From an uncultured Verrucomicrobiae bacterium (GTDB lineage: Bacteria; Verrucomicrobiota; Verrucomicrobiia; Chthoniobacterales; UBA10450), in assembly GCA_963815455.1 (NCBI GenBank), contig CAWFGO010000001.1:928001-992000 (forward strand): a stretch of DNA of 64,000 bases. Direction: 5' to 3'. This document shows positions 30,826-52,805 of the stretch, piece after piece. Numbering within the stretch: the stretch's first letter is position 1; the number at the start of each line of letters is the position of its first letter. The translations under genes were made by a program, and so were the position numbers. The notes beneath the pieces are model-generated. The model had not been told where the DNA came from. It did no database searches and saw only the letters and a list, made by a program, of their open reading frames with translations.

Positions 30826-31605
30826 CTACTTGTTGATTAACGCACGCGCTTCGTCATCCGACAAGGCACGATACCGAATCGCCCTGCCCGAGTCGCGCTC
30901 CAACACTCCAGCTTCGATACCCATCCTGGCAAGTTGCTCCTGTCGATGCTCGGCGAGCGCGGCCCGTTGCGGTAATTCTTTCACGCCATCTTTTTGTAAT
31001 GCCATGTGCCCAATGCTCCAGACATCGATCGCAGAGCTCAATGCCGCCGCCAGCGTCGCACCCGGTGCATGCTCCGTTTTCAGAAACGTTTCCATCAGCT
31101 CGGCTGATTGTCGCGTCCCGCTCAGAACAGCGAAATCCTGTCGGGTCTCGACAAAGGTTCCACCGTTAGTGGCGATCGCGCCGTCGTAATCAACTCGCAA
31201 AAACAAATCGTCCTCAGCGCGCGCGCCGACTTCAGCAAAAAGCATTCGGGCCAGATAAGGCGCCCCGTAAACCTGTTCGAAAGCGCTTTTCATCGCCGGG
31301 CTCAAGGAATAATGGGCCAGCCGGCGCAGAGAAACATCCGCCGCCGATCGGGTGAAACCTTCCGTGCTGGCCAGTTCGATCGCGGCCATGCGCAGTCGCT
31401 CGATATCACCGGGATGACCGATCGCCCCCATGGCAATGCGATCGTAGATCTCGAAAATTTTCTGACCGGCCCGGCCAAGCGTGAGAAACAGAATGCCGTC
31501 GCTGTAACCGACCGCCGCAATTGGACTGCCCGAAGCCAACTGCGTCTCGATGTACTCGCGACGATTGGCAATCGCTTCAACCCAACGATAAGGTTCTTCG
31601 ATCAT
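30826..31605 (-). CDS. prcA: 20S proteasome alpha subunit
   Basis: KIFEIYDRIAM and PY..RMLFAEVG; ATGA overlap with prcB. Confidence 0.88.
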   Translation of the reverse strand: MIEEPYRWVEAIANRREYIETQLASGSPIAAVGYSDGILFLTLGRAGQKIFEIYDRIAMGAIGHPGDIERLRMAAIELASTEGFTRSAADVSLRRLAHYSLSPAMKSAFEQVYGAPYLARMLFAEVGARAEDDLFLRVDYDGAIATNGGTFVETRQDFAVLSGTRQSAELMETFLKTEHAPGATLAAALSSAIDVWSIGHMALQKDGVKELPQRAALAEHRQEQLARMGIEAGVLERDSGRAIRYRALSDDEARALINK

Positions 31606-32432
31606 GCCACCGTTCTCTCGAATACCGCCGCGATCTGTTCTTCGGGCATCGTCTTGATCCCCTCGCCCGAAACAATCTTGATCAGGGGATAAATCTTTCC
31701 ACTGCGATCGACCCCGCCCGTGGCCGTGTCCGATTCGGCCGCCGTATCCAAGGCGCGCAACGCCACCGTGATTGCCTCTTCTTCGCTCCGCTCCTGCAAC
31801 GGCCTGGCCCCCCAATGATTTTCGTAATAGAGAATGCCGCGCACCGCCGGCGATCCCGACCCGGTCGCAGCATAATCGGCCACCTCAAATTGCGCTCCCA
31901 TCGCGTCGTAGAAATAAAGACGCCCCCCAGGTTTTGCGCTGGAATCGTAGGTGGCAAAAATTGGCACCACCATTCCCAGGCCCTGCAAGGCCAGGCCGAA
32001 ATTGTCTCGCAACAATTTCGAAAGCGCGCGCACTTTTCCATCCACGCTCATCTCCTGCAATTGGGTTCGCCGAAAATATTGGAACGAATGTTCGAGCACC
32101 CGCGCCATCTCCCAGGCCGTCGCCGGCACGCCGGCAATGGCCATGATAGAATGTCGATCGATCTCGAGAACTTTATCGGCTCGATCGTAAACCACCGTGT
32201 TCCCCGACGTGGCCCGCCGGTCTCCGGCGACTAGAACGCCGCCGGAAAACTTGAACGCCAAAATCGTCGTCGCTTCGGTGGGCGCCCAAGGCCGGTGATC
32301 GGATGCCGTTCCTCGGGCGGCAGGATCGACAATCGTCGCCTGGCCGAGCAATCCTTTGCGCCGAAGAAGCGCGGGAAACTCCTCGCCCGCGCCAGAAAAA
32401 TTCTGGTCCAGTCCCACGGGGCCCGCTTCCAT
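31602..32432 (-). CDS. prcB: 20S proteasome beta subunit
   Basis: Propeptide then TTILAF, AGDRRAT, ATGSGS and D.ATGG motifs. Confidence 0.93.
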   Translation of the reverse strand: MEAGPVGLDQNFSGAGEEFPALLRRKGLLGQATIVDPAARGTASDHRPWAPTEATTILAFKFSGGVLVAGDRRATSGNTVVYDRADKVLEIDRHSIMAIAGVPATAWEMARVLEHSFQYFRRTQLQEMSVDGKVRALSKLLRDNFGLALQGLGMVVPIFATYDSSAKPGGRLYFYDAMGAQFEVADYAATGSGSPAVRGILYYENHWGARPLQERSEEEAITVALRALDTAAESDTATGGVDRSGKIYPLIKIVSGEGIKTMPEEQIAAVFERTVA

Positions 32433-34501: not shown

Positions 34502-35140
34502 CTATTCCAGGCCGGTCGAGCCATCTAGGTTCCAGCTTGGTTTGCCGGAGGCAACCGCGCGTGCCGCCATTTCCGCCGGAACCCTGTCATTCAGCGCGCG
34601 ATAGCGAACCCCACCTTCGTAAGCGTAAAGCGGAACGTATTTGTTACGCCTTTCCTTTTGGAGCCTGACCGCATGCCGGCTGAATGTCGGATCGAGAACA
34701 TACCTTCCGTTTGTGGTCTCCCATTCCAACCAGGCATGGGTAAACCAATCACCGGCCCGGCGCCTGCCGATGATCAAACGAAAATCCGTGGCACCGATCT
34801 GACGCATGATTTGGTAAAGAGTCACCGCCTTGCCCTTGCAATCCGCCCTCTTCGTCAGACCAACCTCAGCCGGCGTCTTCCATTCTTTTGAATATCGATA
34901 GGGAATCCGGCGCAGCCGGCTCATCCATTGATTGACAACCGCCAGAGAAACTTCGTCGGCCGGCTCAGCTTCAACCGCGGCCAGGATCGGTTGCACACGC
35001 AGCATCTGACGATCGTAAGGTGTGGAGTCGACCACAAACAATATCGGGCGGGCCAATGCGGTAGATGCCAGGCCGACAACCGCCAGGAGTGATAAATGAA
35101 AGCACTTGAATCGTCGGGATGAGAGCGATTTCCGGACCAT
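34502..35140 (-). CDS. Exported transglutaminase-like cysteine peptidase
   Basis: W.TP.E, ADCKGKA, HAWL and YVLDPT motifs. Confidence 0.8.
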   Translation of the reverse strand: MVRKSLSSRRFKCFHLSLLAVVGLASTALARPILFVVDSTPYDRQMLRVQPILAAVEAEPADEVSLAVVNQWMSRLRRIPYRYSKEWKTPAEVGLTKRADCKGKAVTLYQIMRQIGATDFRLIIGRRRAGDWFTHAWLEWETTNGRYVLDPTFSRHAVRLQKERRNKYVPLYAYEGGVRYRALNDRVPAEMAARAVASGKPSWNLDGSTGLE

Positions 35141-35300
35141 GACGCTCTCATAAAGCAGTGCCCATGCCGCGCGGATTGGCTGGTCAGGTAGATAAAAAAG
35201 CAGACGGCATTTTGCAGCATCGACAACGGACAGGCTCGAAAACCATTGCGCGATCCCCAGTTGGGCTGGCACTGTATTCTACGTCAACCAAGAGGTAAGG

Positions 35301-37337
35301 ATGACCGCAGAAAGGGTGACTTTTTATTCTCCCACGCTGGTGCCGGCATTGCACCGCATCCAGCGACAGTTCGGCTATCTAAAGCCGGAGGCCCTCGAGG
35401 AGTTTTCCAAAGAAACGGGCGTGCCGCAGTACCGGCTTCAAGCAGTAGCCAGTTTCTTCCCTCATTTTCTGCTCACTCCTCCTAAGAAAGTTGTGTTGCG
35501 GGTCTGTCGCGATTCGTCCTGCCATTTGGCCGGCTCGGGGAGGATGCTGCGAGAACTGGATGCCTTGACGAGCGAACACGTTGCGATTGAGGGAGTGTCG
35601 TGTCTGGGCCGATGCGATCGAGCGCCGGCAGCGTGCGTCGCGATGCAGGGCCGCGAGCACGATAACTATTATCTCGGCCGATCAGTTGATGAATTAAGGA
35701 CGGTCGTTGCCGCGACTCTCGCTGGTGCGCCGCCAGCGCCAGATCGAGATACGGATCACATCTCGGTGAACGACGACGCCGTGATCGACCCCTACAAAGG
35801 AGAGTCACCCGATTATCGCGCGGTGCGCGCGGCGATAGCGGCGCGCGATGCCTCGCTGAACGGAGCCATCGAAATTCTAAAATCGAAGGCGGGATGGACT
35901 CCGGGAATGCTCGACAACTTCCGGGCCGCGGCCATTCGCCAAATGCGCGTTGATTTCGAATTGGCTCCCCCTGTTCGCGAAGCCGTGCGTCATTGGCAGA
36001 CAGAAAATGACTGGGCCAAAGGTCCGGAGTTGGGCGGCTGGTCCGACATCATTCTTGATGAGATCAAGGAGGCCGATCTCCGTGGACTGGGCGGCGCAGG
36101 AATCCCGGCAGTGCAAAAGTGGCGGGATGTACGCGATGCCGTGCGCACGGCCCGGCTGCGGGAGGAAGACGATCGCGCGTTTATTGTGGTCAATGGCGAC
36201 GAGAGCGAGCCGGGCACATTCAAAGATCGCGAGCTTCTGCTTCGCACTCCTCACCTGATCGTGGAAGCGGTGATCCTGGCGGGCATGATGACCGAGGCCA
36301 CTCAAGGTTTCATATATATTCGCCATGAATACACCGAGCAGATCGAGGCCTGTCGGGCCGAGATTCGCCGGGCGGAGCAGCTCGGCTTTTGCGGCGAAAA
36401 CGCGGCCTCGATTGGACGGCCCTTTCTCGTTTCCGTATTCGTTAGCCCGGGCGGTTATATTTGCGGCGAACAGAGCGCGCTCATCGAGGCCATGTCGGAT
36501 CGGCGTGGCGAGCCGCGAAACATGCCGCCGAAATTGGAGACCAACGGCCTGGAGGACCTTCCCACACTGGTGAGCAACGTGGAAACATTTGCCTGGGTTC
36601 CGTTTATCTGTCTCAACAGCGGAAAAGCATACGCGGAACAGGGAGCGAATAGCTGGAAAGGGCGGCGATATTTTTCTGTCTCGGGCGACGTCAAGCGTCC
36701 GGGTGTTTACGAAGTGCCGATGGGGATGACGCTGCGAGAGTTGATTTACGGCGAGAAATATTGTCAGGGCATCGCGGGCGATAAACAGCTCAAGGGGTTC
36801 GCGCCTTCGGGCCCATCCGGCGGATTTCTGCCGGCGAAACTCAAGGCGAACAAGGGTCTGCCTCGCGATCTTGAAAATAATAAGAGCTGGCAGGCGTTGG
36901 CGGGGCGGCGCGGTCTCAATCCGGTCTCGACCGAGCTCGACATTCTCGATCTCGAGCTGGAGCTAAATCTTTTCCGAGCCTTAAGCCCCACTCAGGCATT
37001 GGGCGCCGGGCTGGTCGTCTACTCGGAAGATCGAGATATGGCCGAGCAAGCCGTAAATTCCGTGGAATTTTTTCGCAATGAATCGTGCGGCAAATGTGTG
37101 CCCTGCCGGCTGGGATCGCAGAAGCTGGCGTCTCTCGGATCGCATCTACTCAACGGAAAGATTGCCGAGCAACACTGGAACGACGAAATTTTTCCAATGA
37201 TTAAAGAGATGGGGCGAGCGATCGAACTGGCCTCGATTTGCGGACTGGGGCGATCGGTCCCGGTGCCTCTCACGACAACCGCCGCCTTTTTCGAAGAAGA
37301 CGTGACCAAGCATCTCTCGACAGGATCGGGAGCCTAA
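35301..37337 (+). CDS. NuoE-NuoF fusion (NAD(P)H dehydrogenase flavin module)
   Basis: CRDSSC..CLGRC [2Fe-2S]; LRGLGGAG, NGDESEPGTFKDR, YICGEQSAL, ESCGKCVPCR..SICGLG. Confidence 0.92.
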   Translation: MTAERVTFYSPTLVPALHRIQRQFGYLKPEALEEFSKETGVPQYRLQAVASFFPHFLLTPPKKVVLRVCRDSSCHLAGSGRMLRELDALTSEHVAIEGVSCLGRCDRAPAACVAMQGREHDNYYLGRSVDELRTVVAATLAGAPPAPDRDTDHISVNDDAVIDPYKGESPDYRAVRAAIAARDASLNGAIEILKSKAGWTPGMLDNFRAAAIRQMRVDFELAPPVREAVRHWQTENDWAKGPELGGWSDIILDEIKEADLRGLGGAGIPAVQKWRDVRDAVRTARLREEDDRAFIVVNGDESEPGTFKDRELLLRTPHLIVEAVILAGMMTEATQGFIYIRHEYTEQIEACRAEIRRAEQLGFCGENAASIGRPFLVSVFVSPGGYICGEQSALIEAMSDRRGEPRNMPPKLETNGLEDLPTLVSNVETFAWVPFICLNSGKAYAEQGANSWKGRRYFSVSGDVKRPGVYEVPMGMTLRELIYGEKYCQGIAGDKQLKGFAPSGPSGGFLPAKLKANKGLPRDLENNKSWQALAGRRGLNPVSTELDILDLELELNLFRALSPTQALGAGLVVYSEDRDMAEQAVNSVEFFRNESCGKCVPCRLGSQKLASLGSHLLNGKIAEQHWNDEIFPMIKEMGRAIELASICGLGRSVPVPLTTTAAFFEEDVTKHLSTGSGA

Positions 37338-37351
37338 CTAAACCAAACCAA

Positions 37352-39862
37352 ATGGCTGTACAATCCGATTTCGTCGCCGGGATGTTCGTTCGCGACGATG
37401 ACGAAGGATTATTCAGCCGCGACATCAACGGCCAGCTCGTTCGGTTGGATGCGCCTACCGAATCCGATTACGAAAAAAATGTAACCCTCCAGATCGATGG
37501 CGTGCCGGTTACCGTGCCGCTGGCCGAGCCGTTGACCGATGCCAATGGCAACATCGTCCTCGATTTGCAGGGACGCACCACGCCGCGCTACACCACAATT
37601 TACGATGCCGCTCGCAAGCTTTACGTCGAGCAGGTCGGCGACGAAAAGAAAATTCCGATTCCGGTTCTTTGCCATCAACCCCACATGCATCCGGTCGCCG
37701 TCTGCCGGCTTTGCGTGGTGCAAATCTACGGCCAGAAACGAGGCCGTCGGGCGGCCGAACGCAAGTTACTGCCCGCCTGTCAGCACCAGGTCAGGGATGG
37801 GATGGAAGTCTTCACCATGAATGCGCCGGGGCCCGATGGCGATCGGGTCCGGCAAACTGTGAAAGTCGTGACAGAACTCCTGGCCGCCGATCATCTCAAG
37901 CCAGCGAGTCCCCCCGAGTTGGAGAAGGAACTCGCGGAGTTTAACGAGCTTCGGCAAATGACCGAACGCTGCGGCGCGGACCCATCGCGATTCAAACTGG
38001 ACGTCTTGTCGGATCCGCCGCCGCTGGCGCGGCCGCGGGCCGGGCGGCGCGAGCCCGATTCTTCCTCGCCGGTCTTTCTTGTCGATCACACCGCCTGCAT
38101 TTTGTGCGATCGTTGTGTGCGAGCATGCGACGACGTGAGAGAAAACCACGTCATTGGCCGTACCGGAAAGGGAATCACCGCCGGCATCGGGTTCGATCTA
38201 AACGGTCCAATGGGTCAATCGACCTGCGTTCAATGCGGCGAATGTCTGGTCTCCTGTCCTACTAGTGCGATCACATTTAAGTCCGTCGCTCAGGTCAATA
38301 TTCTCACTCATGACCGTTCGTCAGAAGTGTTGACCGCGAGAGAATTGATCTCCGATCCCATCTTCGCCGGAATTTCATCCAAGTTTTTGCTCTGGCAGCG
38401 GGGCCTGGTCATCCGCCGTCGAGTCCGGGCCGGTCAAATCCTGTGCCGCCAGGGAGATCCCGGCAACACTGCGTTCATCATCCGGCGCGGTAAATTCCAA
38501 GTGACCGTGTTCCCGCGGGCACCCAGATCGGGGCGAGCCGTTTCGTGGTTCGATCGCCGGAAGCCGGTCTTCGAAGCGCAAGTGACTCCCGCGGATATGA
38601 TCCTCGGCGAAATGGCGTGTCTGAGTGGATCGCCTCGATCGGCCAATGTCACCGCGCTCGAAGAAGGCGAAGTCTGGGAGATTCGTCGCAATGTCCTCGA
38701 CCGGCTGATGCGACTTCCCAGCCAACGGCAGCGTTTTGAATCTGAATACCGGGAGCGCTCCCTGGATCTCGCTCTGCAGGACACCGATTTGTTCAAGGGA
38801 ATCGAGCCGGGTGAATACGGCCGGATCGTGGATTTTCTTCGACACCGCCTCGTCTTCGTTCGAGTTCACGCCGGGCAAACTCTCTTCGAGTATGGCGACG
38901 TCGCGACTCACATGTATTTCGTTCGGCTGGGGCACGTCCGTATCAGCGTTCCTCAACACGGCCGCGAGGCCAAGGTCATTTCGTCCGGGCCGGGCGCAGT
39001 TCTTGGCGAGATCGGGTTACTCGCCTTAACTCCAGCCGATGAACGAAAAACGGCCGATGAAGTCGATCGCGCGGTGAAAGCAGCGCTCGATCAGGCGGGC
39101 GACGACCTGACCCGGGTTTTTCCGCCAGGCCACCGTTCCGCAACCTGTTCTGCCTTGAATCATCTGGAATTGACTCAGCTTAGCCGCGCAGATTTTCTCG
39201 AGATGTTGCGCAAGTTCGGCGTGCTGCGCCGACGAATCGTCGAACAATCTCTCGCCCGGTTACACAGCTCAACCGTGGGTCATCGCCTCCTCGATGAGTA
39301 CGTCGCCCAGGGTCTTTACGAGGGTCAAAGCGTTCTCGTTCTCGACCTGGATAATTGCACCCGGTGCGACGCCTGCACCCAGGGCTGTGTCGAGCAACAC
39401 GGGACCGCCACCCACGGTATCCCAATCCCGCGCCTTCTCCGGGACGGACGGCGCCTGGATAACTTTCTGGTCGCGACCTCCTGTCGATCCTGCACCGATC
39501 CGCATTGCATGGTCGGATGTCCGGTCGACTCGATTCATCGAGGCAAGCACCTGCAAATCGTCATCGAAGATCATTGCATCGGCTGTGGCTTGTGCGCCGA
39601 AAACTGTCCCTACGGCAGCATCTTCATGATTCCTAACGAGCGACATCGCTTCGCCGTGGCCGATGTGGGACACGCCGGACAAACGCACCTGGTCGGTCAA
39701 CTCAAGGCCGCTAATTGCGATCTCTGCGATGCCAGAGGCGACCTATCCTCGCCCGACCCAGCATGCGTAGCCGCATGTCCACACGATGCCGCCTTCCGTA
39801 TGACCGGCCCCCAACTGCTCGAGCGCGTCATGAAATCGCACGTCCACGAAACGGACTGGTGA
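37352..39862 (+). CDS. NuoG-N-like Fe-S domain plus two cNMP-binding domains plus four-cluster ferredoxin
   Basis: IPVLC..CRLC..AC; CILCDRCVRAC; CVQCGECLVSCP; GEMACL..PRSA; GEIGLL..HRSA; CTRCDACTQGC; CRSC..CMVGCP; CIGCGLCAENCP; CDLC..CVAACP. Confidence 0.9.
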   Translation: MAVQSDFVAGMFVRDDDEGLFSRDINGQLVRLDAPTESDYEKNVTLQIDGVPVTVPLAEPLTDANGNIVLDLQGRTTPRYTTIYDAARKLYVEQVGDEKKIPIPVLCHQPHMHPVAVCRLCVVQIYGQKRGRRAAERKLLPACQHQVRDGMEVFTMNAPGPDGDRVRQTVKVVTELLAADHLKPASPPELEKELAEFNELRQMTERCGADPSRFKLDVLSDPPPLARPRAGRREPDSSSPVFLVDHTACILCDRCVRACDDVRENHVIGRTGKGITAGIGFDLNGPMGQSTCVQCGECLVSCPTSAITFKSVAQVNILTHDRSSEVLTARELISDPIFAGISSKFLLWQRGLVIRRRVRAGQILCRQGDPGNTAFIIRRGKFQVTVFPRAPRSGRAVSWFDRRKPVFEAQVTPADMILGEMACLSGSPRSANVTALEEGEVWEIRRNVLDRLMRLPSQRQRFESEYRERSLDLALQDTDLFKGIEPGEYGRIVDFLRHRLVFVRVHAGQTLFEYGDVATHMYFVRLGHVRISVPQHGREAKVISSGPGAVLGEIGLLALTPADERKTADEVDRAVKAALDQAGDDLTRVFPPGHRSATCSALNHLELTQLSRADFLEMLRKFGVLRRRIVEQSLARLHSSTVGHRLLDEYVAQGLYEGQSVLVLDLDNCTRCDACTQGCVEQHGTATHGIPIPRLLRDGRRLDNFLVATSCRSCTDPHCMVGCPVDSIHRGKHLQIVIEDHCIGCGLCAENCPYGSIFMIPNERHRFAVADVGHAGQTHLVGQLKAANCDLCDARGDLSSPDPACVAACPHDAAFRMTGPQLLERVMKSHVHETDW

Positions 39863-39969: not shown

Positions 39970-40653
39970 TTAACTTGCGGAAGGTGGCCCGGCTGGCGGC
40001 GATATACCCGGCGCCGATGTTGAGCCTGATGTTGTAGCCGCCTCGCTCTGTCGAGGCGAAGGTGCAGCACTTGGCGTTGTGGCCGCCTTTGCCGCGGCCG
40101 CTTCCGCGGCGGCTTTCTTCTTTGCTTCCGCCGCAGCCGCGGCTTGAGCAAGGTTTGCATCGACATCGGCAGCTTCGATCGGATGAATCTTGTGATAATA
40201 ACCGTTCGATTTCGCGAGATCGTTCTTGCGCATCAGCAACGCATCGAAGCGCTCCCGCGTACTCAATTCGAAATCCTTATCCATCTTGATCGCTTCGAAC
40301 GGGCAAACCTCGACGCAAATCTGGCAGCTCATGCACACCGATATGTCGATGTCGAACACCGCCGGATAAAACTGCGGTTTGCCCAGGTAATCGGGCTTTT
40401 TGTCTTCGCTCTTAATAATATAGATGCACTGCGGCGGGCATTCCTTCTCGCAAATCTTGCACGCCACACAGCGCAAACCCGCCTCCGGGTCGTCGGTGTC
40501 GTAAATCAGAAACGGAAAGTTCCGGTAATTTTCCGGCAACGGGTTCCGCTCTTCCGGATATTGCACCGTGATCAGCCGATCCTTTTCGAAATAACTCCCG
40601 GCGAAGTTACGCAACGTAACCGCCATGCCCTTGAGTATGCCTGTGCCGATCAT
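39970..40653 (-). CDS. nuoI: NADH-quinone oxidoreductase subunit I
   Basis: TVQYPEE, CVACKICEKECP and CMSCQICVEVCP. Confidence 0.93.
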   Translation of the reverse strand: MIGTGILKGMAVTLRNFAGSYFEKDRLITVQYPEERNPLPENYRNFPFLIYDTDDPEAGLRCVACKICEKECPPQCIYIIKSEDKKPDYLGKPQFYPAVFDIDISVCMSCQICVEVCPFEAIKMDKDFELSTRERFDALLMRKNDLAKSNGYYHKIHPIEAADVDANLAQAAAAAEAKKKAAAEAAAAKAATTPSAAPSPRQSEAATTSGSTSAPGISPPAGPPSAS

Positions 40654-40660
40654 GCGATTC

Positions 40661-41869
40661 TCATCGATCCACCTCTCCCATGACGATGTCGATGCTGCCG
40701 AGAATGACCATCACATCGGCCACAGTATGGCCAAGGCACAAATCTTCGAGGACGGTCAGATTGATAAAACTTGGCGGACGGACCCGGTAACGATAAGGGT
40801 TCGCGCTGCCGTCGCTGATTAAATAAAAGCCGAGCTCGCCCTTTGGTGCTTCGATCCGCCCATACGCTTCGCCCACCGGCGGTTTGAACGCGCGAATCTT
40901 CACCTTTGGATTCGCGATTGGCCCCGGTTGAATCTGGGAGAACGCCTGCTTTAAAATTTCGATGCTTTCGCGCATCTCCAGCGCGCGCATCATTAAGCGA
41001 TCGTAGGTGTCGCCATGATCTCCCAGCGGGACCCGAAACTTGAATCGGGGATAAATTCCGTAGCCATCGACTTTGCGTACATCGTAATTTACCCCGCAGG
41101 CGCGAAGCATCGGGCCGGTGATGCCAGCGTTGATGGCGAGCTCGGCCGACATTTTTCCCACGTTCTGGGTCCGCGCGATCACGATCTCGTTTTGCAAAAT
41201 CAGTTGTTCGAACTCATCGAGAAACTTCGGGAAAGCATCGACAATCTTCTTCGCGCGGCCAAGCCAGGCATCGTCGGCATCGACTCGGCAGCCGCCGAAC
41301 CGCATGTAATCGCACATCATCCGCGAGCCGGCGAGCGATTCGAACAGATCGAGAATTTTTTCGCGTTCTCGAAAGGCATACATCAGCGGCGTGCCCCACG
41401 CCCCCATGTCGCTCAGCAAGAATCCGAGCAGCGAGGCGTGATTCTGCAGCCGGGTCAGCTCAGCCAGAATGACGCGCAAATATTCGGCGCGTTCGGGAAC
41501 TTCGATCCCGGCCAGTTTCTCTACGCTGAGCGCATAGGCCCAGTTGTTCGTCATCGAACAAAAATAATCGAGCCGGTCGGTGTACGGCATCGAGCCGAGA
41601 TAACTCGTGTTCTCGCCGATCTTTTCGTGATTCCGATGCAGGTAGCCGAAAACCGGCTTGAGCTTGCGCACAATCTCGCCTTCGAGCGCGACGTTCATCC
41701 GAAACACGCCGTGAGTCGATGGATGTTGCGGTCCCATCGACACTTCGAGCAACTCGCCGTCGAGTGAAGACGTCATCCCGAGCGCAGTCGAGGGATCCCG
41801 TTGCGTAACCTTAAAGCTATCGCCGCGGGATCCGTCGACTACGCTTCGCTCTGCTCGGGATGACATCAT
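40661..41869 (-). CDS. nuoD: NADH-quinone oxidoreductase subunit D
   Basis: MGPQHPSTHGVFR, GYLHR, DRLDY, EAPKGE and GEVDR; no NiFe CxxC motifs. Confidence 0.96.
   Translation of the reverse strand: MMSSRAERSVVDGSRGDSFKVTQRDPSTALGMTSSLDGELLEVSMGPQHPSTHGVFRMNVALEGEIVRKLKPVFGYLHRNHEKIGENTSYLGSMPYTDRLDYFCSMTNNWAYALSVEKLAGIEVPERAEYLRVILAELTRLQNHASLLGFLLSDMGAWGTPLMYAFREREKILDLFESLAGSRMMCDYMRFGGCRVDADDAWLGRAKKIVDAFPKFLDEFEQLILQNEIVIARTQNVGKMSAELAINAGITGPMLRACGVNYDVRKVDGYGIYPRFKFRVPLGDHGDTYDRLMMRALEMRESIEILKQAFSQIQPGPIANPKVKIRAFKPPVGEAYGRIEAPKGELGFYLISDGSANPYRYRVRPPSFINLTVLEDLCLGHTVADVMVILGSIDIVMGEVDR
41771..41865. repeat. TGTCATCCYGAGC-family palindrome inside the nuoD 5' end
   Basis: GTCATCCCGAGC...GCTCGGGATGAC; shares GGATCCCG and AACCTTAAA with the 7849 copy. 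Confidence 0.9.
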
Positions 41870-42558
41870 TGGGCCGTAATATTTTCAGCGCCGTCCAGTT
41901 GCGGTCGCTGTGCGTAATGCCCTTTGGCTCGCTCCAATACTTCATCGTGCGGGGTCGGCTCGTATTCGTAATCGTCCGGATCGCGATAATCTTTCCGCAT
42001 CGGGAAGTCCTCGAACTCGTCCCACATCAAGATCCGCCGCAAATCCGGATGACCATCGAAATGAATCCCATAAAGATCGAAAATCTCGCGCTCTTGAAAT
42101 TCGGCGCTACGCCAGATCGGGGTGAGCGACGGAAGTCGCGCGCCCTCCCTGCGATCGGCCGTCCGCAGTCGAATGATGATCGGGCCGTGTCCGCCGCTGG
42201 ACGGATTCGCCGTGGCGAACTTGAGCGTCATCGAAAAGAGGTGATACACCGCCTCGAGATAGCCCGGGATTTTTTCTTCCGTGGTTTGGTCCACTTCCTT
42301 CTCGACGCCCTCAACGATCGTTTTCACTTTGCTTGTCTTCTTCACCGTGCGATCGAGCCAATCGACTCCGGTCACGTTCGAACAATGATCGAGTCGCAAT
42401 TCTGGATCGTCGCGCAGAAACTTTGCGACCGCGCCCGCATGTTCGTTGTCAATCAAGAGCGACGATTGTTGCGCCGGCCCGGGATTAACGACGATGTCGA
42501 TCTTCGCTCCGGGCATCGTTGATTCGGCGCGCGCTTTGATTTGCTCGAGTGTTTCCAT
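41866..42558 (-). CDS. nuoC: NADH-quinone oxidoreductase subunit C
   Basis: EREIFDLYGI.F.GHPDLRRIL..FPMRKD. Confidence 0.95.
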   Translation of the reverse strand: METLEQIKARAESTMPGAKIDIVVNPGPAQQSSLLIDNEHAGAVAKFLRDDPELRLDHCSNVTGVDWLDRTVKKTSKVKTIVEGVEKEVDQTTEEKIPGYLEAVYHLFSMTLKFATANPSSGGHGPIIIRLRTADRREGARLPSLTPIWRSAEFQEREIFDLYGIHFDGHPDLRRILMWDEFEDFPMRKDYRDPDDYEYEPTPHDEVLERAKGHYAQRPQLDGAENITAQ

Positions 42559-42569
42559 TAGTCAGTGCC

Positions 42570-42661
42570 AAGGTGGATCGGCCTCTCCGAGGACGATGCT
42601 AAAAATAATGCGGCTTCGCCGCCAAATTCCAACATCGCGCTCGGAGATCGCGATCCACCTT
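42570..42661. repeat. Intergenic palindrome between nuoB and nuoC
   Basis: AAGGTGGATCG...CGATCCACCTT. Confidence 0.8.
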
Positions 42662-43282
42662 TCATCGCTCAATTTTCATCGGACGAAACACATCCGGGTT
42701 CGCCGGCGGTTCCAAATCGTGTTTGCCAAACGCCGGCACCGGAAATTCGCTCGGCTGAGTTCGATCCAGATGCGGGGCCTTTTTGTCGCCGGTCAATTTT
42801 TGTTCGTCGATCTTGCGCTGCAATTCCATGAACGCGTGGAGCAACGCTTCCGGCCGCGGCGGGCACCCGGGAATGTAAACATCGACAGGAATGTAACGAT
42901 CGATCCCTTTGAGCACGTTGTAACCCTGCTTGAACGGTCCGCCGGAAATCGCGCAGGCGCCCATCGAGATCACATATTTCGGATCGGGCATTTGGTTGTA
43001 AAGCCGGACAATTTGCGGCGCCATTTTTTTGGTCACAGTCCCGGCCACGATCATGAGATCGGCCTGACGCGGCGATGGGCGAAACACTTCGCCGCCGAAT
43101 CGGGCGATATCGTAACGCGATGCCGCGGTCGCGATCATTTCAATCGCGCAACAGGCCAGGCCAAACTGCAACGGCCAGATCGAATTCTTCCGGCCCCAGT
43201 TGTAAAGCTCCTGCACCGACGTCACCCAGATTCCTTGCCTTTGAAGCTCGCTGCGCAGCCCCTCGTCAATTTGGTTATTCAT
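42662..43282 (-). CDS. nuoB: NADH-quinone oxidoreductase subunit B
   Basis: [18 protein letters not shown] and PGCPPRPE motifs. Confidence 0.97.
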
Positions 43283-43292
43283 CCGATTTCAC

Positions 43293-43342
43293 TGTAGGGC
43301 GTCTCTGTGAACCCCGAAAGCGTTCGGGGCTGACGCCCTACA
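43293..43342. repeat. GTAG-type REP doublet between nuoA and nuoB
   Basis: TGTAGGGCGTC...GACGCCCTACA with inner CCCCGAA-AGCG-TTCGGGG. Confidence 0.85.
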
Positions 43343-43351
43343 ACCTCCGAT

Positions 43352-43726
43352 TCATCTGCCCCACTGTAAACAACCTTTGCCCCAGGCCCAAACCAGACCT
43401 TCGATCAATAGCAGTAAAAAAACGAGAAGGGCGATGAACGCGCCGATCGGCAACCCGGTGAACGCCACGGCAAACGGCACCAGAAAAATCGCTTCCACGT
43501 CAAAGATCAGAAAGATGATCGCGTAGAGATAATACTTCGATTGAAACTGCACGTGCGCTTCGCCAATCGATTCCACGCCGCATTCGTAGGTCGCGTTCTT
43601 CTCCAAGCCCGGCTTCGGCGGCTGAAAAAAACGTCGCCACAGCCAGGCCAGCGCCAACGGGGCCAGCGGAAAAGCCAGCGCCACGCCAACAAAAATGACG
43701 ATAAAAAGGTAAGGATTGGGACTCAT
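43352..43726 (-). CDS. nuoA: NADH-quinone oxidoreductase subunit A
   Basis: YECG and FLIFDVE motifs, three TM segments. Confidence 0.96.
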   Translation of the reverse strand: MSPNPYLFIVIFVGVALAFPLAPLALAWLWRRFFQPPKPGLEKNATYECGVESIGEAHVQFQSKYYLYAIIFLIFDVEAIFLVPFAVAFTGLPIGAFIALLVFLLLLIEGLVWAWGKGCLQWGR

Positions 43727-43781
43727 CGAATCTCGATCAAATTCGCTCGGAAAGATGTGCTGCCAAGTCTATAATTGGGTT

Positions 43782-43958
43782 GTGGACAAGACGGTAAAAA
43801 AATTCCGGAGTTTTGACGAGGCCGAAAAGGCCGATCGCGCTTTTTACAAGAAGCTCACCGGCAACCAACGACTGCAGATTCTGCTCGAACTTCTAGACCA
43901 TGCGCCTGACCAACGACTCGAGAGAGTTTCTCGAATTACTAAACTCCCGCGGCGTTGA
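43782..43958 (+). CDS. Small hypothetical protein, putative antitoxin-like partner
   Basis: GTG start 6 nt after TATAAT (43770-43775); overlaps the nucleotidyltransferase gene. Confidence 0.6.
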   Translation: MDKTVKKFRSFDEAEKADRAFYKKLTGNQRLQILLELLDHAPDQRLERVSRITKLPRR

Positions 43959-44343
43959 TTATATCATCGTCGGCGCGCACAGCCTGGCGTTCCACGGACG
44001 TCCACGCTATACCGGCGATCTCGATATTCTCGTGCGGGCCACATCGGAAAACGCCGGCAAACTCGTCCAGATCTTGAATCAATTTGGGTTCGAGCGGTCT
44101 GGCTTCAAGGAATCTGACTTCACCGAGCCGGAGCAGATGATCCAGCTTGGTCGTGTCCCCAGCCGGATCGATCTACTCACCACTATCAGCGGCGTCACGA
44201 ATGACGAAGCTTTTGCTACAAGGATTTCGGCCGACATCGATGGCATTTCCGTTTTCGTTCTAAGCAAGGATCTACTAATTCGCAATAAACGCGCCGTCGC
44301 TCGACCACAGGACTTGGCTGATCTCGATGCGCTGGAGCATTGA
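43900..44343 (+). CDS. Nucleotidyltransferase-fold protein
   Basis: YIIVGAHS..HG.PRYTGDLD, RIDLL and NKRAVARPQDLADL. Confidence 0.85.
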   Translation: MRLTNDSREFLELLNSRGVDYIIVGAHSLAFHGRPRYTGDLDILVRATSENAGKLVQILNQFGFERSGFKESDFTEPEQMIQLGRVPSRIDLLTTISGVTNDEAFATRISADIDGISVFVLSKDLLIRNKRAVARPQDLADLDALEH

Positions 44344-44388
44344 GTTTTGCTTGATTGCGCGTGAGGCAATCGCTTTCCTTCATCGAAG

Positions 44389-45576
44389 ATGAGCGATGCT
44401 GTCGATCAGATCTTCGTCCGAGCGAAAGAATGGTTACTCTCGTTTCTCGCCGGCGCGCCTGACTGGATCGTCCAGATCGCCTCGGCCTTGATCAACATTT
44501 TCACGCTCCTCGGAGTGTTCCTGACGCTCTTCGCGCTGATGTCGGTGCTGGAGAGAAAAATTCTGGGGCGGATGCAAAATCGCTACGGACCGAATCGAGT
44601 TGGGCCGTTCGGACTTTTCCAGCCGGTCGCTGACGGCATTAAGATGCTGATCAAGGAAGACATCGTGCCCGCGCGGGCGGACAAGATCGTGCATTTCCTG
44701 GCGCCGATCCTGATCGCGGCGGCGGCGATTCTCGCTCTCGGCGTAATTCCCTATGGCCGAAACATGACGCCGTTTAGCATCGATGGCGGCATTTTGTTTT
44801 TCTTCGCCGTTGGATCGACCACCGAACTCGCGGTTTTCATGGCCGGTTGGGGCAGCAACAATAAGTTTTCGATGCTCGGCGCAATGCGGGCGATCGCGCA
44901 GATGATCAGTTATGAATTGCCGTTGATTATCACGGTGATTCCGGTCGTGATGGTTGTCGGTTCGCTCACGCCCGACGCGATTGTCTCGGCGCAAGGCGGC
45001 TACACATTTGGAATTGTGCCGCGCTGGTTCGTGTTCACCCCGTGGGGCGCGGCCGCGTTTATTTTGTTCTTTGTTTCAGGCCTGGTCGAATCGAACCGTA
45101 CCCCGTTCGATGTGCCAGAAGGGGAATCGGAAATTGTCGCCGGTCACATGACCGAGTATTCCGGCTTCAAATACGCCACGTTTTTTCTGGCCGAATACCT
45201 TGGCATGTTCGCGGTCAGCGGGCTCGCCATCACATTGTTTCTCGGCGGCTGGCACCCGCCGCTCCGCGTCCTCGAATTTGTTCCCTCCTACGTTTGGTTT
45301 TTCGCGAAGTTGTCGATCCTGCTTTTTGTTTATGTCTGGCTCCGTGGAACTCTGCCGCGCACCCGAGTCGATCAGATGATGAATTTTGCCTGGAAATTCA
45401 TGCTGCCGATGGCATTCACCTGCATGATCGCCGCCGCCGTGTGGCATTATGCCGGACGCGGCTTGCGCGGCTGGCTTTGGTCGCTTGTCGTGGTCGCGAT
45501 TGTTTATGTAATCTTGTCGATCCTGCTCGACACGCGGCGAAAATTTGCGCCGCGCACATATCGTTTTGCCGAATGA
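44389..45576 (+). CDS. nuoH: NADH-quinone oxidoreductase subunit H
   Basis: ERK..GRMQNRYGPNRVG, ESNRTPFD.PEGESE and TEYSG. Confidence 0.97.
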   Translation: MSDAVDQIFVRAKEWLLSFLAGAPDWIVQIASALINIFTLLGVFLTLFALMSVLERKILGRMQNRYGPNRVGPFGLFQPVADGIKMLIKEDIVPARADKIVHFLAPILIAAAAILALGVIPYGRNMTPFSIDGGILFFFAVGSTTELAVFMAGWGSNNKFSMLGAMRAIAQMISYELPLIITVIPVVMVVGSLTPDAIVSAQGGYTFGIVPRWFVFTPWGAAAFILFFVSGLVESNRTPFDVPEGESEIVAGHMTEYSGFKYATFFLAEYLGMFAVSGLAITLFLGGWHPPLRVLEFVPSYVWFFAKLSILLFVYVWLRGTLPRTRVDQMMNFAWKFMLPMAFTCMIAAAVWHYAGRGLRGWLWSLVVVAIVYVILSILLDTRRKFAPRTYRFAE

Positions 45577-46055
45577 ACAGCGTCGCCTTCGTCTTCATCG
45601 CGATTTTCATTCTGGCCGCGGCGCTCGCCGCCGCCACGCTAAAGAAGTTGATGCACGCAGCGCTCAGTTTCGCGCTCGCGCTCGTCGGCCTGGCTGCGTT
45701 TTTCTTTCTCCTCGGTGCTGAGTTCGTGGGCCTGGTGCAAATCTTCGTTTACATCGGCGCGGTCGCGGTCCTGATCGTGTTCACAATCCTGCTCACGCGA
45801 CGCGAAGCGGAAAAGGACCATGGATTCAACTGGGGCGGCGCTGTTATCGCTGTCGCCGTTTTCGGAGGATTGATTTGGGCGATCTCCCGAACGCAATTGC
45901 TCGCAGTGGGCGCGCCACAAATGGAAGCGCTCACCGTGAAGGGAATTGGCGAAACATTGATGACGAGTTATGTATGGCCGCTGCTTTGTGTCGGCCTCCT
46001 GCTTACCGCCGCGCTGATTGGCGCACTCATTCTGGTGATGGAGGACAAGCGGTGA
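45573..46055 (+). CDS. nuoJ: NADH-quinone oxidoreductase subunit J
   Basis: AEFVGLVQIFVYIGAVAVL; ATGA overlap with nuoH. Confidence 0.94.
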   Translation: MNSVAFVFIAIFILAAALAAATLKKLMHAALSFALALVGLAAFFFLLGAEFVGLVQIFVYIGAVAVLIVFTILLTRREAEKDHGFNWGGAVIAVAVFGGLIWAISRTQLLAVGAPQMEALTVKGIGETLMTSYVWPLLCVGLLLTAALIGALILVMEDKR

Positions 46056-46071
46056 GAGCAAATTTCTTCGT

Positions 46072-46214
46072 CTGGGGAGCACAGGCTGCCAGCCTGTTGC
46101 ATTCGGCGGCCTCGCCGAATGCCTCGTTGCCCACGATGCAAGGTTCTAACAACGCGCCAGAGCGGTTCGCGGCAAGCTGCCGCGAACTACAGGCTCGCAG
46201 CCTGTGCTCCCCGG
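46072..46214. repeat. Palindromic element, GGGGAGC family, between nuoJ and nuoK
   Basis: GGGGAGCACAGGCTG...CAGCCTGTGCTCCCC with inner hairpins. Confidence 0.88.
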
Positions 46215-46232
46215 AATCGGAGTGACCCCGCG

Positions 46233-46543
46233 ATGAATCCCACCTTGCAAACCTTCCTCATCGTTTCAGCGGCGTTGTTCTCCATCGGCTTGCTTGCCGT
46301 CCTGAGCCGGCGTCATGCAATCTTCATTTTGATCGGCATCGAAATGATGCTGGCGGCGGCGAATCTAAATTTCATCGCCTTCTGGCGGTTCGGCCCCGAA
46401 CCGCACCCGCCGACCGGCGTGATCGTCTCAATTTTTTCAATCGCCATCGCCGCCGCCGAGGCCGCCGTGGGACTCGCACTCGTGATCGCCGTTTATCGTC
46501 ACTACCGCACGACCAACGTCGATCAACTCGATCGACTCAAAGG

Positions 46544-46547
<4 letters not shown>
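46233..46547 (+). CDS. nuoK: NADH-quinone oxidoreductase subunit K
   Basis: IEMML and AAAEAAVGLAL..LKG. Confidence 0.96.
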
Positions 46548-48516
<1,969 letters not shown>

Positions 48517-48529
<13 letters not shown>

Positions 48530-49989
48530 TCACAGCGCTCATCGTTATTCCGATCGCTGGCGCGCTCGGCCTTTACATCGGCCGCCCGCGAAATCCGCGC
48601 GTGATCGCGCTGCTCTTCAACGCACTCGCGGCGTTTTACGCGTTCATGCTGTGGCAAAAATTCGATACCCACGCCGCAGGCCTGCAAATCGTCGAGCGCC
48701 ACGAATGGATTCCAACCATCGGCGCCGAATATCTCGTCGGTGTCGATGGGCTGAGCCTGCTGCTCGTTCTGCTGACCACGCTCATCATTCCATTCGGGCT
48801 GCTGGCCCAGCGATTGGAGCGCGGAGCGTGCGCGCTGATGTTGATCACGCAATCGGCCCTCTATGGCACGTTCACCGCCCAGAATTTTGTCCTTTGGTTC
48901 TTGTTTTACGAGATGAGCCTGATCCCGGCGTTCCTGCTCATTAAGATCTGGGGCGGAGAAAACCGGGACCGAGCCGCGACGAAATTCTTTCTTTATACAT
49001 TCCTCGGCAGCATCGCCATGCTGCTGAGCTTTCTCGGCATTTACTTCGCGAAAGGAACATTTGATTTCGCGACTCTGGCCGATCTCGGAAAAGGTGGCCT
49101 GCTCACCGGCAAGTTCGCCTGGCTCGCCTTTGCCGGAATTTTTCTCGGACTCGCGGTCAAGGTTCCACTGTTTCCATTTCATACCTGGCTGCCCGACGCC
49201 TACGAAACCGCGCCTACCGGCGTGTCGATGGTCCTGACCGGCCTGCTTTCAAAAATGGGCGTTTACGGTTTCGTGCGCCTTTTGCTTCCGCTTTTTCCTA
49301 ACGAAATCAAAATCCTCGGCCCATGGCTGCTGGCGCTGGCGGTCTGTTCGATCGTGTTCGCCCCGCTGGCCGCGTGGGCCCAGCGGGATTTGAAACGCAT
49401 GGTCGCCTACCTGTCGATCAACCATCTCGGTTATTGCATGCTTGGCTTGTTCGCCATCACCGCAGGATCGACATCCTCGTCGATCGATACGCACGCCGCA
49501 TTGAGTGGCGTGTTCCTGCAAATTTTCAATCACGGCATCACCGCCGCCGCTTTGTTTTACTTCGTCGGCTTGCTCGAACAACGCCGCGGCCTGCGCGGTA
49601 TCGACGATTTCGGCGGGCTGATGCAGCGAACGCCGTTGCTCTGCGGCTGGATGAGCGTGGCCATGTTTTCGTCGCTCGGTCTGCCGGGCTTGAACGGATT
49701 CATTGGCGAATTTCTCATTTTCAAAGCCTCGTTCGCCATGGTCGCTTCGTTCACGGCGGTGGCCGTGCTCGGGCTGCTGGTCACGGCAATTGTTTTTATG
49801 CGAATGATGCAATCGCTCTTCAGCGGACCGCTCAGCGAGAACTGCAGCGGATTCCCCGATCTTCTTCAGAGTGAAAAAATTATCATCGTGCCGGTCACGC
49901 TGCTCATGTTCGCCATCGGCATCGCGCCGCAGTTCATGTTCAGCATCTTCAACACAACGGTCGCCCAAATGGCGCGACTATTTGCCTGA
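48517..49989 (+). CDS. nuoM: NADH-quinone oxidoreductase subunit M (copy 1)
   Basis: VDGLS, AVKVPLFPFHTWLPDA, KMGVYG and GFIGE. Confidence 0.95.
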
Positions 49990-50000
49990 GGTTTGATGGA

Positions 50001-50110
50001 ATGAGTAAGGCAATCATCCCGATTGAGCGCATCGCTCAGCGAATTCTTGTCTTGCGCGGTGAGAAAGTACAAGGGACCGCCATGTTGTCGAGTGTATTCA
50101 ATTGCAATCG
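50001..50110 (+). pseudogene. ORF6N-domain gene remnant with internal deletion
   Basis: IERIAQRILVLRGEKV joined directly to QGTAMLSSVFN, the two ends of the ORF6N domain. Confidence 0.6.
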
Positions 50111-50112
50111 GA

Positions 50113-50263
50113 TTGGGAAGCGCACGCGCCTCCCGTGCTGGCGATGGCGCCCTCGCCATCGCGAACTTTTTCTCAGCATTTCACCGTTGGGTTCCGACAA
50201 TTCGTCAAAGACTTTTCGGCGAGGGCGCCGAAAAGAACACGCGAGGCGCGTGTGCTCCCCAGA
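50113..50263. repeat. Palindromic element, GGGGAGC family, between nuoM1 and nuoM2
   Basis: TGGGAAGCGCACGCGCCTC...GAGGCGCGTGTGCTCCCCAGA, abutting the nuoM2 ATG. Confidence 0.85.
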
Positions 50264-51748: not shown

Positions 51749-52106
51749 CGCGCACGTACTTGCGCACGCTGCCGTCGGCGGCCTCGATGACGAAATGATC
51801 GTGAGTAATGCTGCGAAGCTTATCGCGATCTCTTGTTCCCGGAGGGATATGCCCCATTTTATCGCCGGTGTATTCGTAAACAATCGCTCCCTCACTCAGT
51901 CGCCATTTGCCTGTGAATTTCGAGAGAAGCGCGTCGTCCCCTGTGACATAGCCGGAGAAGTTTCCGTTCCTGAGAAAAACGTATTCAGCAGTATGCCGGC
52001 TGTCGATCCATCGCCATCTGCCCACCAATTTGCTTTCGGCTTTTTCCCCGATGGTCGAACACGACGCAGCAAAAAATGCGGCCAGCAGAAGAACCATTTT
52101 AACCAT
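51735..52106 (-). CDS. Hypothetical lipoprotein
   Basis: MVKMVLLLAAFFAASC lipobox; LVGRW..F.GKW beta-barrel-like pattern. Confidence 0.7.
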   Translation of the reverse strand: MVKMVLLLAAFFAASCSTIGEKAESKLVGRWRWIDSRHTAEYVFLRNGNFSGYVTGDDALLSKFTGKWRLSEGAIVYEYTGDKMGHIPPGTRDRDKLRSITHDHFVIEAADGSVRKYVRVNGD

Positions 52107-52182
52107 CGTGGACAAGAGGCGACAGAATCACACGCGGCCAACGCAAGCGCAATCACCTCTCGACGGATCTGCGCAGGGAACG

Positions 52183-52210
52183 AAAAGGCCGGCTCTTGGA
52201 GCCGGCCTTC
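52183..52210 (-). terminator. Rho-independent terminator
   Basis: AAGGCCGGCTC-CAA-GAGCCGGCCTTTT on the minus strand, after the 52239 stop. Confidence 0.7.
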
Positions 52211-52238
52211 AGGAGGAAACAGTAATTCTATATCGGCC

Positions 52239-52805
52239 CTAGTTCTGAGCGATTAAGGTCGTGGAAGCGCGGAATTTCTTGCTCCCGGCGTAGGCGTAAA
52301 GTGGGACATAGCAGTTGCGGCGAATTTTCTCGGAGCGAGTCGCGGTATGATTGAACGTGGGATCCAGGACGTAGCTACCACTGTCGGTCTGCCATTCGAG
52401 CCAGGCGTGGGTCCGGCGGCTCGTCGGAGCGCGTTTCCCAATGACCAAACGAAGATGGGTCGCACCCTGGCTTTTCATTCTTTTATAAAGGGCGACCGCT
52501 TTGCCTTTGCAGTCGGCCGGTCGCCGTGACTCCACCTCAGCTGGCGTTCTCCAGACCTTTTGGAAACCGTAGGGAATATCACGCAGATCGCTCATCCAGA
52601 TGTTTACCAAGGCAAGTGAGGTATGATCTGTTGAGGAGCCGGCTGTGGTCAGGACCTCGCGAATAGGGGTCATTTGGCGATCATAGGGGGTGCCTTTGAC
52701 GGTCAGCATCAAAGCGTCGGCAAAAGTGTTTGCGGCAGGCAGGCCGACGAGTATAAAGGCTACAAGGAGAGCTGGTTGGATCTTGGAGAGGCTTATATGT
52801 TTCAT
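52239..52805 (-). CDS. Exported transglutaminase-like cysteine peptidase (paralog of 34502-35140)
   Basis: TPYDRQM, WRTPAEV, ADCKGKAV, HAWLEW and YVLDPTF. Confidence 0.82.
   Translation of the reverse strand: MKHISLSKIQPALLVAFILVGLPAANTFADALMLTVKGTPYDRQMTPIREVLTTAGSSTDHTSLALVNIWMSDLRDIPYGFQKVWRTPAEVESRRPADCKGKAVALYKRMKSQGATHLRLVIGKRAPTSRRTHAWLEWQTDSGSYVLDPTFNHTATRSEKIRRNCYVPLYAYAGSKKFRASTTLIAQN

Follow-up and report, generated by a model that had tools for sequence, protein, structure and literature searches.

We analysed a stretch of 64,000 nucleotides from an uncultured soil bacterium of the Verrucomicrobiae (contig CAWFGO010000001.1; hereafter the window) that encodes a protein, P0001, in which iron-sulfur (Fe-S) domains flank two domains of the type that binds cyclic nucleotide monophosphates (cNMP). 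Our reading, to which we give a probability of roughly 55%, is that P0001 is a cytoplasmic electron wire of the PtdE type belonging to a PCC4/ptd conduit, to which an NAD(P)H input has been added and which would be gated by a cyclic nucleotide. The core module and its operon are already in print as the uncharacterised PCC4/ptd, and the NuoEFG-fed form is a variant of it. Our searches of the open-access literature turned up no publication that deals with gating or with the form fed by NuoEFG, and the ptd preprint, in the portion available, names the cNMP domain without giving it a function. PCC4/ptd conduits are widespread and uncharacterised. The P0001 variant would give this class a donor in the cytoplasm (NAD(P)H), a candidate switch and a place of docking on the membrane protein, and with these named it becomes possible to test what such conduits do and which way their electrons run. 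The anatomy of P0001, its conserved pockets, its co-occurrence with the conduit, the replacement of a short form and the docking model were established by sequence comparison or computation.

Domain anatomy of P0001

P0001 is an 836-residue protein read from an ATG, and its gene begins 14 nt after the stop codon of the gene for a NuoE-NuoF fusion protein (P0002; Table 1). Pfam matched Fer2_4 at residues 42-156, a 4Fe-4S dicluster domain at 248-307, cNMP_binding twice (E 3.9e-31) and 4Fe-4S domains at 705-813. With NCBIfam, the best models for the N-terminus (hereafter the head) were HydA group A6, HoxU and NuoG, each far under its cut-off (116.6 bits against 765, 111.9 against 333 and 46.5 against 470, respectively), and the C-terminal part (the tail) gave matches to HydN/DmsB/DsrO/ArrB models, also below cut-off. 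The Cys positions agree with these matches: residues 107, 118, 121 and 143 would hold a [2Fe-2S] cluster and those at 249-259 and 292-302 two [4Fe-4S] clusters, while the 16 Cys of the tail fall into four groups (669-679, 711-723, 742-752 and 789-809). An earlier note, made from the sequence alone, had described a NuoG/FdhA/HydA-like N-terminus with one [2Fe-2S] and two [4Fe-4S] clusters and a DmsB/NrfC-like four-cluster tail, and both descriptions hold. It had also stated that the motif of the His-ligated cluster was reduced to its His and that no molybdopterin or H-cluster domain was present. Indeed, His181 stands without the three Cys, P0001 does not have the motif HxxxCxxCxxxxxC, and neither the Pfam and NCBIfam scans nor the alignment revealed either domain. 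No output or DNA-binding domain was found by Pfam.

The Gly-Glu and Arg-Ser/Thr-Ala motifs of cAMP/cGMP-type pockets are present in the cNMP domains. Pocket A, in which the span from Glu to Arg is 10 residues, is intact as previously proposed. In pocket B (G552-E553..R595-S596-A597) this span is 43 residues, with an insert of 33 residues and not of about 35 as first estimated. An AlphaFold2 model built with 97 sequences was confident throughout the chain (mean pLDDT 86.7, pTM 0.83), and in it the pocket B insert forms two helices. When the whole model was searched with Foldseek, PKA/PKG regulatory domains were the best matches (E about 1e-13). The head was superimposed on the N-termini of formate dehydrogenase (FDH) alpha subunits (7VW6_A: Z 21.4, root mean square deviation 2.1, 214 residues aligned). 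No solved chain among those listed spans the whole of P0001, FDH/hydrogenase N-termini and PKA/PKG domains matching separate parts of it. A conserved N-terminal extension and a hairpin insert in the [2Fe-2S] domain (window 37388-37600) are family-specific and confidently modelled.

Conservation of the long form

Near relatives of P0001 are numerous (119 listed, 66-83% identity). To describe the wider family, we used 66 diverse full-length representatives of this architecture, hereafter the long form, at 34-65% identity to P0001; these are the ones among 150 representatives that match both head and tail and have fewer than 1200 residues. We also used 66 long-form genome loci, which by record title belong to Verrucomicrobiota, Acidobacteriota and Planctomycetota; carriers include Chthoniobacterales such as Candidatus Udaeobacter. 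The possibility raised in the earlier note that P0001 is a chimera or a misassembly was thus rejected on the near relatives, the full-length representatives and the loci across three phyla.

All eight ferredoxin Cys of the head and 15 of the 16 Cys of the tail are invariant in the 66 long forms. The pocket residues are also well kept (E420 in 64, R429 in 59, E553 in 58 and R595 in 55), and both pockets have their E and R in 52/66, so that, judged by sequence, the nucleotide pockets look functional, as had been supposed. The E-to-R span of pocket B ranges from 6 to 44 residues. Conserved Cys were also seen within the cNMP domains: C423 (window 38618-38620) in 57/66, C365 in 48/66 and C599 in 40/66.

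His181 is kept in 51/66 long forms, and two or three Cys remain in that segment in 14/66. In the FDH of R. capsulatus the His-ligated cluster lies off the direct path from Mo to flavin mononucleotide (FMN) (PMC7171172), and it is absent from FDH1 of M. extorquens (MeFDH1; PMC10869683), as it is in our own alignment. Because this cluster is off the main path in one FDH and absent in the other, its loss would leave the wire of P0001 unbroken.

The NuoEF partner and its NADP(H)-type residues

A NuoEF homologue was called in 55 of the 66 long-form loci, directly upstream of the long form. Moreover, a natural fusion of NuoEF and the long form exists (P0144, 1483 residues), which confirms that they work together. 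P0001 is a real electron wire partnered with NuoEF, as the earlier note had it. P0002 stops after its NADH_4Fe-4S domain (last Cys 647), and the extra C-terminal ferredoxin domain of the HydB type was not found in it.

By a gap-free mapping, Q391, M408 and K411 of P0002 occupy the positions of E259, K276 and L279 of FdsB. The CGEE motif reads CGEQ in 52/52 NuoEF homologues (56 loci with the gene, four motif-less fragments being left out); at +17 from this Gln the Lys is absent in 51/52, and at +20 a Lys is found in 45/52. Each of the FdsB substitutions E259Q, K276A and L279R confers an activity with NADP+ that is absent in the wild type (PMC10671435). The respiratory NuoF of the same genome retains E/K/Y at the three positions. 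Since the NuoEF residues map onto FdsB sites that confer NADP+ activity, use of NADPH by the NuoEF partner is likely.

Relation to PtdE and PCC4

The genome also contains a separate, canonical ptd/PCC4-like operon (C1 446-458 kb; L067:3470-14570) encoding a flavin adenine dinucleotide (FAD)/NAD/2Fe-2S reductase, a porin-like protein, 5-heme and 4-heme cytochromes, a cNMP-FeS protein, a membrane protein and a 10-heme cytochrome. A frameshift, possibly an assembly error, lies near the end of its cNMP-FeS gene. Residues 417-754 of P0001 align with this protein, which occupies the PtdE position, at 29% identity (E 3e-35); the likeness to PtdE rests on this copy and not on the published PtdE sequences. 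The membrane proteins of the ptd-like operon and of the P0001-linked system, described below, are homologous.

In the published operon ptdABCDEFG, PtdE (cNMP and [4Fe-4S]) comes ahead of PtdF, which is the membrane protein, and PtdG, which is the decaheme (bioRxiv 10.1101/2023.11.21.568154). PtdE is the gene that He et al. 2017 (PMC5566968) list as the Fe-S one in PCC4 subgroup II, and neither paper assigns it a function. P0001 shares with PtdE/PCC4 the cNMP and [4Fe-4S] chain, the ferric-reductase-like membrane protein and the periplasmic decaheme. It differs by its added NuoG-type head and in being paired with NuoEF, where ptd has the FAD/NAD(P)-binding PtdC. Instead of the 4- and 5-heme cytochromes of ptd, the long form is associated with a c554-like protein of 3 hemes and an LVIVD protein of 10 hemes, and in this genome the partners of P0001 are dispersed instead of forming one cluster with porin, 4-/5-heme cytochromes and PtdC. 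The published model has the PCC4/ptd conduit trading electrons with the pool of quinones. In the available portions, neither the ptd preprint nor He et al. mentions cyclic-nucleotide regulation or a NuoEF input; a text search of the supplements of He et al. gave no cNMP, pfam00027 or NADH wording, the domain architectures of Supplementary Figure 4 being outside this search.

Membrane conduit and short form

Long-form loci repeatedly encode a membrane protein of five helices, a decaheme, a c554-like protein with 3-5 hemes, an LVIVD protein with 10 hemes, an HbpS-like protein and a porin-like protein that Pfam does not match. Of the 32 loci that reach 20 kb, 22 contain in addition a partner of the multiheme, porin-like or membrane-protein kind. 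Within the window, only NuoEF and P0001 of the conduit are encoded; the other partners are encoded elsewhere in the genome (Table 1). Two WX3HX13H motifs and SGxxG are kept in 36/38 open reading frames (ORFs) of the membrane protein, and this genome's copy has five hydrophobic segments. WX3HX13H/SGxxG is the signature of the PCC3/PCC4 inner-membrane protein, for which two b hemes were proposed (He et al. 2017, PMC5566968). The decaheme family shows 10 CXXCH motifs in 24/30 ORFs, including this genome's copy, and the remaining six are fragments.

A phylum-wide search with the whole of P0001 gave 0/300, but only three candidates were scored per genome and this was not taken as absence; the membrane protein was found in 2/300 of the same sample. 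This search was replaced by short specific queries at the family level, in 150 genomes at least 85% complete, the long form being queried by the P0001 head. The long form was found in 28 genomes (one of them, G432, unpublished), the membrane protein in 67 and the short form in 38. This short form, of about 560 residues, is cNMP-cNMP-4x[4Fe-4S] and has no NuoG head. The membrane protein is encoded in every one of the 28 long-form genomes, and in 22 of them it lies within 10 kb of the long form. Of the other 39 genomes with the membrane protein, 37 have the short form, and the 83 genomes without it have no long form and a single short form. Long and short forms coincide in 0/150.

The short gene directly precedes the membrane-protein gene, itself followed by the decaheme gene, in 12/12 loci fetched out of 39 candidates. 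The cNMP pair and the four-cluster tail are an independent PtdE-like module that exists without the NuoG head. The earlier note had presented the cNMP domains as the replacement of a catalytic domain; the domains are there, but this framing is incomplete, since the module stands without a head before the membrane protein, that is, before its output. In a genome of the same genus (G325), the locus reads ggt, RDD, short form, membrane protein, decaheme. At the matching locus of the genome studied here, about 1.6 kb of the short gene is deleted and both downstream genes are intact. A remnant of about 70 nt of the start of the short gene (L068:8552-8621; C1 about 1248552-1248621) can be seen before the membrane-protein gene, which occupies C1 1247485-1248522. 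Two further long-form genomes, G317 and G316, also have no short gene at the matching locus. In a tree of 38 membrane-protein segments, from which rows of fewer than 130 aligned residues were left out (Planctomycetota and one short-form locus), the copy of this genome groups with the G325 copy as its sister (support 95/89); the tree was midpoint rooted, so no order of events is drawn from it. Altogether, the distribution and the deletion form the pattern predicted if one input subunit has been replaced with another. Finally, ten distant genomes whose long-form loci have no membrane-protein gene all encode this protein elsewhere (10/10).

A separate locus, L070:5114-18803, carries HbpS-like, porin-like and 10-heme LVIVD genes with a CysJ-like FAD/NAD reductase devoid of a flavodoxin domain. 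The 10-heme LVIVD gene is spread there over three frames and is probably frameshifted in the assembly. The L070 genes recur beside the NuoEF/long-form pair in other genomes, and the CysJ-like reductase is a candidate donor to the short forms.

Modelled docking of P0001 on the membrane protein

A complex was modelled from residues 325-830 of P0001, this genome's membrane protein and two hemes. The docking score was 0.67, the best of three controls reaching 0.00; docking runs shared at least 90% of contacts and the pLDDT of the partner was at least 72. The mark used to judge such scores was reached by 116/157 solved and 2/215 mismatched pairs, and is only roughly valid when own alignments and a ligand are used. 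On the P0001 side, the modelled interface comprises residues 666-682, 696-706 and 802-812. The docked cluster, C669/C672/C675/C809, is set against residues 80-94, 142-159 and 314-318 of the partner, and the interface takes in K80, W93, Q142, P146 and E156, which are invariant in 30 homologues. Beside it, H97 and H324 would hold the cytoplasm-side heme. The model supports binding of the P0001 tail to the membrane protein, without demonstrating it.

Proposed electron route and alternatives

From these results we infer the cofactors, the ligand, the gating, the use of NADPH, the outward direction and the final acceptor of the following route. The NuoEF fusion would use its FMN to oxidise NAD(P)H, probably NADPH, and the [4Fe-4S] cluster of NuoEF would pass the electrons to the [2Fe-2S] and the two [4Fe-4S] clusters of the P0001 head. 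This part corresponds to the path B6-A5-A3-A2 of FDH, so that the lost His cluster would not be needed. The head clusters would then reduce the four-cluster tail, whose C669/C672/C675/C809 cluster would sit on the cytoplasmic face of the membrane protein. The transmembrane step would be made by this five-helix protein through two putative b hemes held by its two WX3HX13H motifs, and the electrons would go on to the membrane-anchored periplasmic decaheme and from there to further multiheme and porin-like parts. A cyclic nucleotide on the tandem domains could open or close the head-to-tail step; such a valve makes sense because outward flow would spend reductant and membrane potential. The earlier note had proposed that ligand binding might alter how far apart the two Fe-S blocks lie, and so switch electron flow or sense redox state. 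We know of no redox wire that is gated allosterically by a cyclic nucleotide.

At somewhat less than even odds, we tentatively extend this to a regulated counterpart of NADPH oxidase, in which a complex I-like flavoprotein and a wire switched by cAMP or cGMP would export electrons to multihemes, long and short subunits being interchangeable on one membrane socket. If this is true, extracellular or periplasmic electron transfer would respond to a second messenger while gene expression stayed as it was. The genome has 14 matches to class III cyclase domains. A CHASE2-cyclase gene lies near the pair in 9/66 loci and a TPR-cyclase gene in 7/66, and in related genomes CHASE2-cyclase and FecR-TPR-barrel genes are found directly 3' of the pair (L014:12534-18246 and similar loci). 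These nearby genes were not counted as evidence, because the loci are kin and because of the number of cyclase-domain matches genome-wide.

Several points weigh against the gated conduit. The E/R pair is missing from one or both pockets in 14/66 long forms. FdsB E259Q still favours NAD+ (kcat/KM 451 versus 79), and double mutants brought no improvement (PMC10671435). In fold searches, the membrane protein did not match any heme-b ferric reductase significantly (the best was SpNOX, E 2.9, and STEAP1 was a weak row, E 4.8), no similar solved complex emerged, and a wide search with its model returned generic helical bundles; its heme binding therefore rests on the motifs. The membrane protein of the ptd-like operon is a possible alternative partner of P0001. 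The family genomes are kin, so their counts are not independent events. Lastly, three of the ten distant genomes (Acidobacteriota; L095, L096 and L097) hold an orphan long pair together with a short-form operon. Exclusivity of the long and short forms is thus not general, and because the short-form operon coexists, the long pair may have another role in those Acidobacteriota.

The conduit could be the same with cNMP domains that serve as a spacer or sense another ligand or the redox state, cAMP and cGMP gating nothing. We hold this unlikely, although the Cys at position 423 of pocket A, where PKA-type pockets have a hydrophobic residue, also has a matching Cys in 12/12 short forms, the insert of pocket B is very variable in length, and pocket B of the cNMP-FeS copy in the ptd-like operon looks degenerate. 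A spacer, however, would not need the G-E and R-(S/T)-A that are kept on either side of the variable insert, and the fold matches of these domains are regulatory domains of PKA and PKG.

Flow might also be inward through the same wiring, a periplasmic or extracellular donor reducing NADP+ to supply NADPH. For Fe(II) oxidisers, He et al. modelled PCC4 as bringing electrons inward from donors outside the cell (PMC5566968), and NuoF-type sites are reversible, as in FDH (PMC10671435). On general bioenergetic grounds, however, inward flow to NADP+ would require a donor of very low potential and would oppose the membrane potential. Moreover, the layout with four His is the one seen in NADPH oxidases and ferric reductases, enzymes that send electrons outward. 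We judge the inward direction improbable.

There is a slim chance that NuoEF and P0001 form a soluble sensor that integrates NADPH/NADP+ and cNMP and, with no sustained electron throughput of its own, controls the membrane complex or some other target. Such a role would suit a pair that lies apart from its partners here and in several genomes and that coexists with a complete short-form operon in the three Acidobacteriota. It fits poorly with the near invariance of the cluster ligands along a nine-cluster chain, with a docking model in which it is a cluster, rather than a cNMP domain, that contacts the membrane protein, and with the lack of an output or DNA-binding domain already noted.

The pair might instead provide the NADH input that the adjacent complex I-like operon is missing. 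This operon converges on P0001, has nuoABCDI, HJKLMM and N but no EFG, and shows the same adjacency in G317. Such a role is very improbable and fails on the distribution of the operon's nuoD type: it is present in 134/150 family genomes, 111 of them without the long form, and among the listed positions it adjoins the long form in two genomes, G317 and the one studied here. In addition, P0001 has lost the His-ligated cluster, from which the complex I chain continues to NuoI, and this genome has a separate operon with nuoEFG.

Comparison with other systems

The head of P0001 resembles in fold the FDH alpha N-termini; among its closest known counterparts are NAD-linked FDH (FdsABG, MeFDH1) and the diaphorase modules HoxEFU and NuoEFG. 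As in the P0001 pair, the His-ligated cluster is lacking in MeFDH1, whose NuoEF-like beta subunit is also a fusion (PMC10869683). Unlike FDH, HoxEFU and NuoEFG, P0001 has no Mo/W, [NiFe] or H-cluster site, its flavoprotein partner carries NADP(H)-type residues, and its wire would run on via two cNMP domains to a four-cluster domain. Compared with NuoG, FdsA and HydA, it lacks a catalytic or pseudo-catalytic C-terminal domain, and compared with the bifurcating HydABC/Bfu enzymes, no HydB-type ferredoxin follows the NuoF core of P0002.

The tail has the same four Cys groups as DmsB/NrfC/HydN, in the DmsB order, and differs by its fusion to cNMP domains. In the docking model, the cluster at the interface is formed by Cys group I and the last Cys. 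In NarH and FdnH the counterpart cluster faces the catalytic subunit, so the orientation of the P0001 tail would be reversed.

NOX/FRE/MsrQ are functional analogues, in which NADPH reduces a flavin and then two stacked b hemes across the membrane (putative in our case), under a second-messenger switch; in NOX5 this switch consists of EF hands. In contrast, the P0001 system would use FMN and nine or more Fe-S clusters in place of one FAD domain, its acceptor would be a decaheme, and the fold match is not significant. The tandem cNMP domains of PKA/PKG have canonical pocket residues in common with P0001, whose domains differ in sitting in a redox chain, in the insert of pocket B and in having no kinase. 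A relation to the porin-octaheme cluster of Verrucomicrobia (PMC5615132) was not shown.

Feature coordinates and neighbouring genes

Table 1. Position of P0001, its domains and the genes of its putative partners; positions are those of the window unless a genome coordinate (C1) is given, and a dash in the strand column means that no strand is entered.
Feature	Position	Strand	Basis
NuoE-NuoF fusion (P0002), 678 residues: [2Fe-2S], FMN site, one [4Fe-4S]	35301..37337	+	Pfam, NCBIfam, alignment
P0001, 836 residues	37352..39862	+	ORF call
[2Fe-2S] domain, residues 42-156 (C107, C118, C121, C143), with family-specific hairpin insert	37475..37819	+	Pfam, alignment, model
His181, remnant of His-ligated [4Fe-4S] site (FDH cluster A4), three Cys absent	37892..37894	+	alignment
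2x[4Fe-4S] ferredoxin domain, C249-C302, counterpart of clusters A2 and A3 in FDH	38096..38257	+	Pfam, alignment, fold match
cNMP-binding domain A, canonical pocket G419-E420..R429-S430-A431	38408..38713	+	Pfam, alignment, fold match
cNMP-binding domain B, pocket E553..R595, 33-residue helical insert	38849..39211	+	Pfam, alignment, model
DmsB/HydN-like 4x[4Fe-4S] domain, 16 Cys, residues 669-809	39335..39799	+	NCBIfam, alignment, docking model
Membrane protein and decaheme operon, 280 kb from P0001	G000 C1:1245981-1248522	-	genome search
c554-like protein gene	C1 1500 kb	-	genome search
Porin-like, 10-heme and HbpS-like genes	C1 553-565 kb	-	genome search

A scan for promoters and terminators gave nothing beyond shuffled controls. 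A search of sequencing runs returned four DNA runs (shares below 0.1) and no RNA run among the matches listed.

The complex I-like operon next to P0001 (window 39970-54487) is split divergently, with nuoABCDI on the minus strand and nuoHJKLMM and nuoN on the plus strand; it has two nuoM genes and presumably resembles the '2M' complexes. Two similar transglutaminase-like genes are found on the minus strand, one directly upstream of the NuoEF gene (34502-35272) and the other within the nuo cluster (52239-52931). Further upstream, also on the minus strand (30826-32432), two adjacent genes encode lookalikes of the alpha- and beta-type subunits of the 20S proteasome, as judged by eye from their translations.

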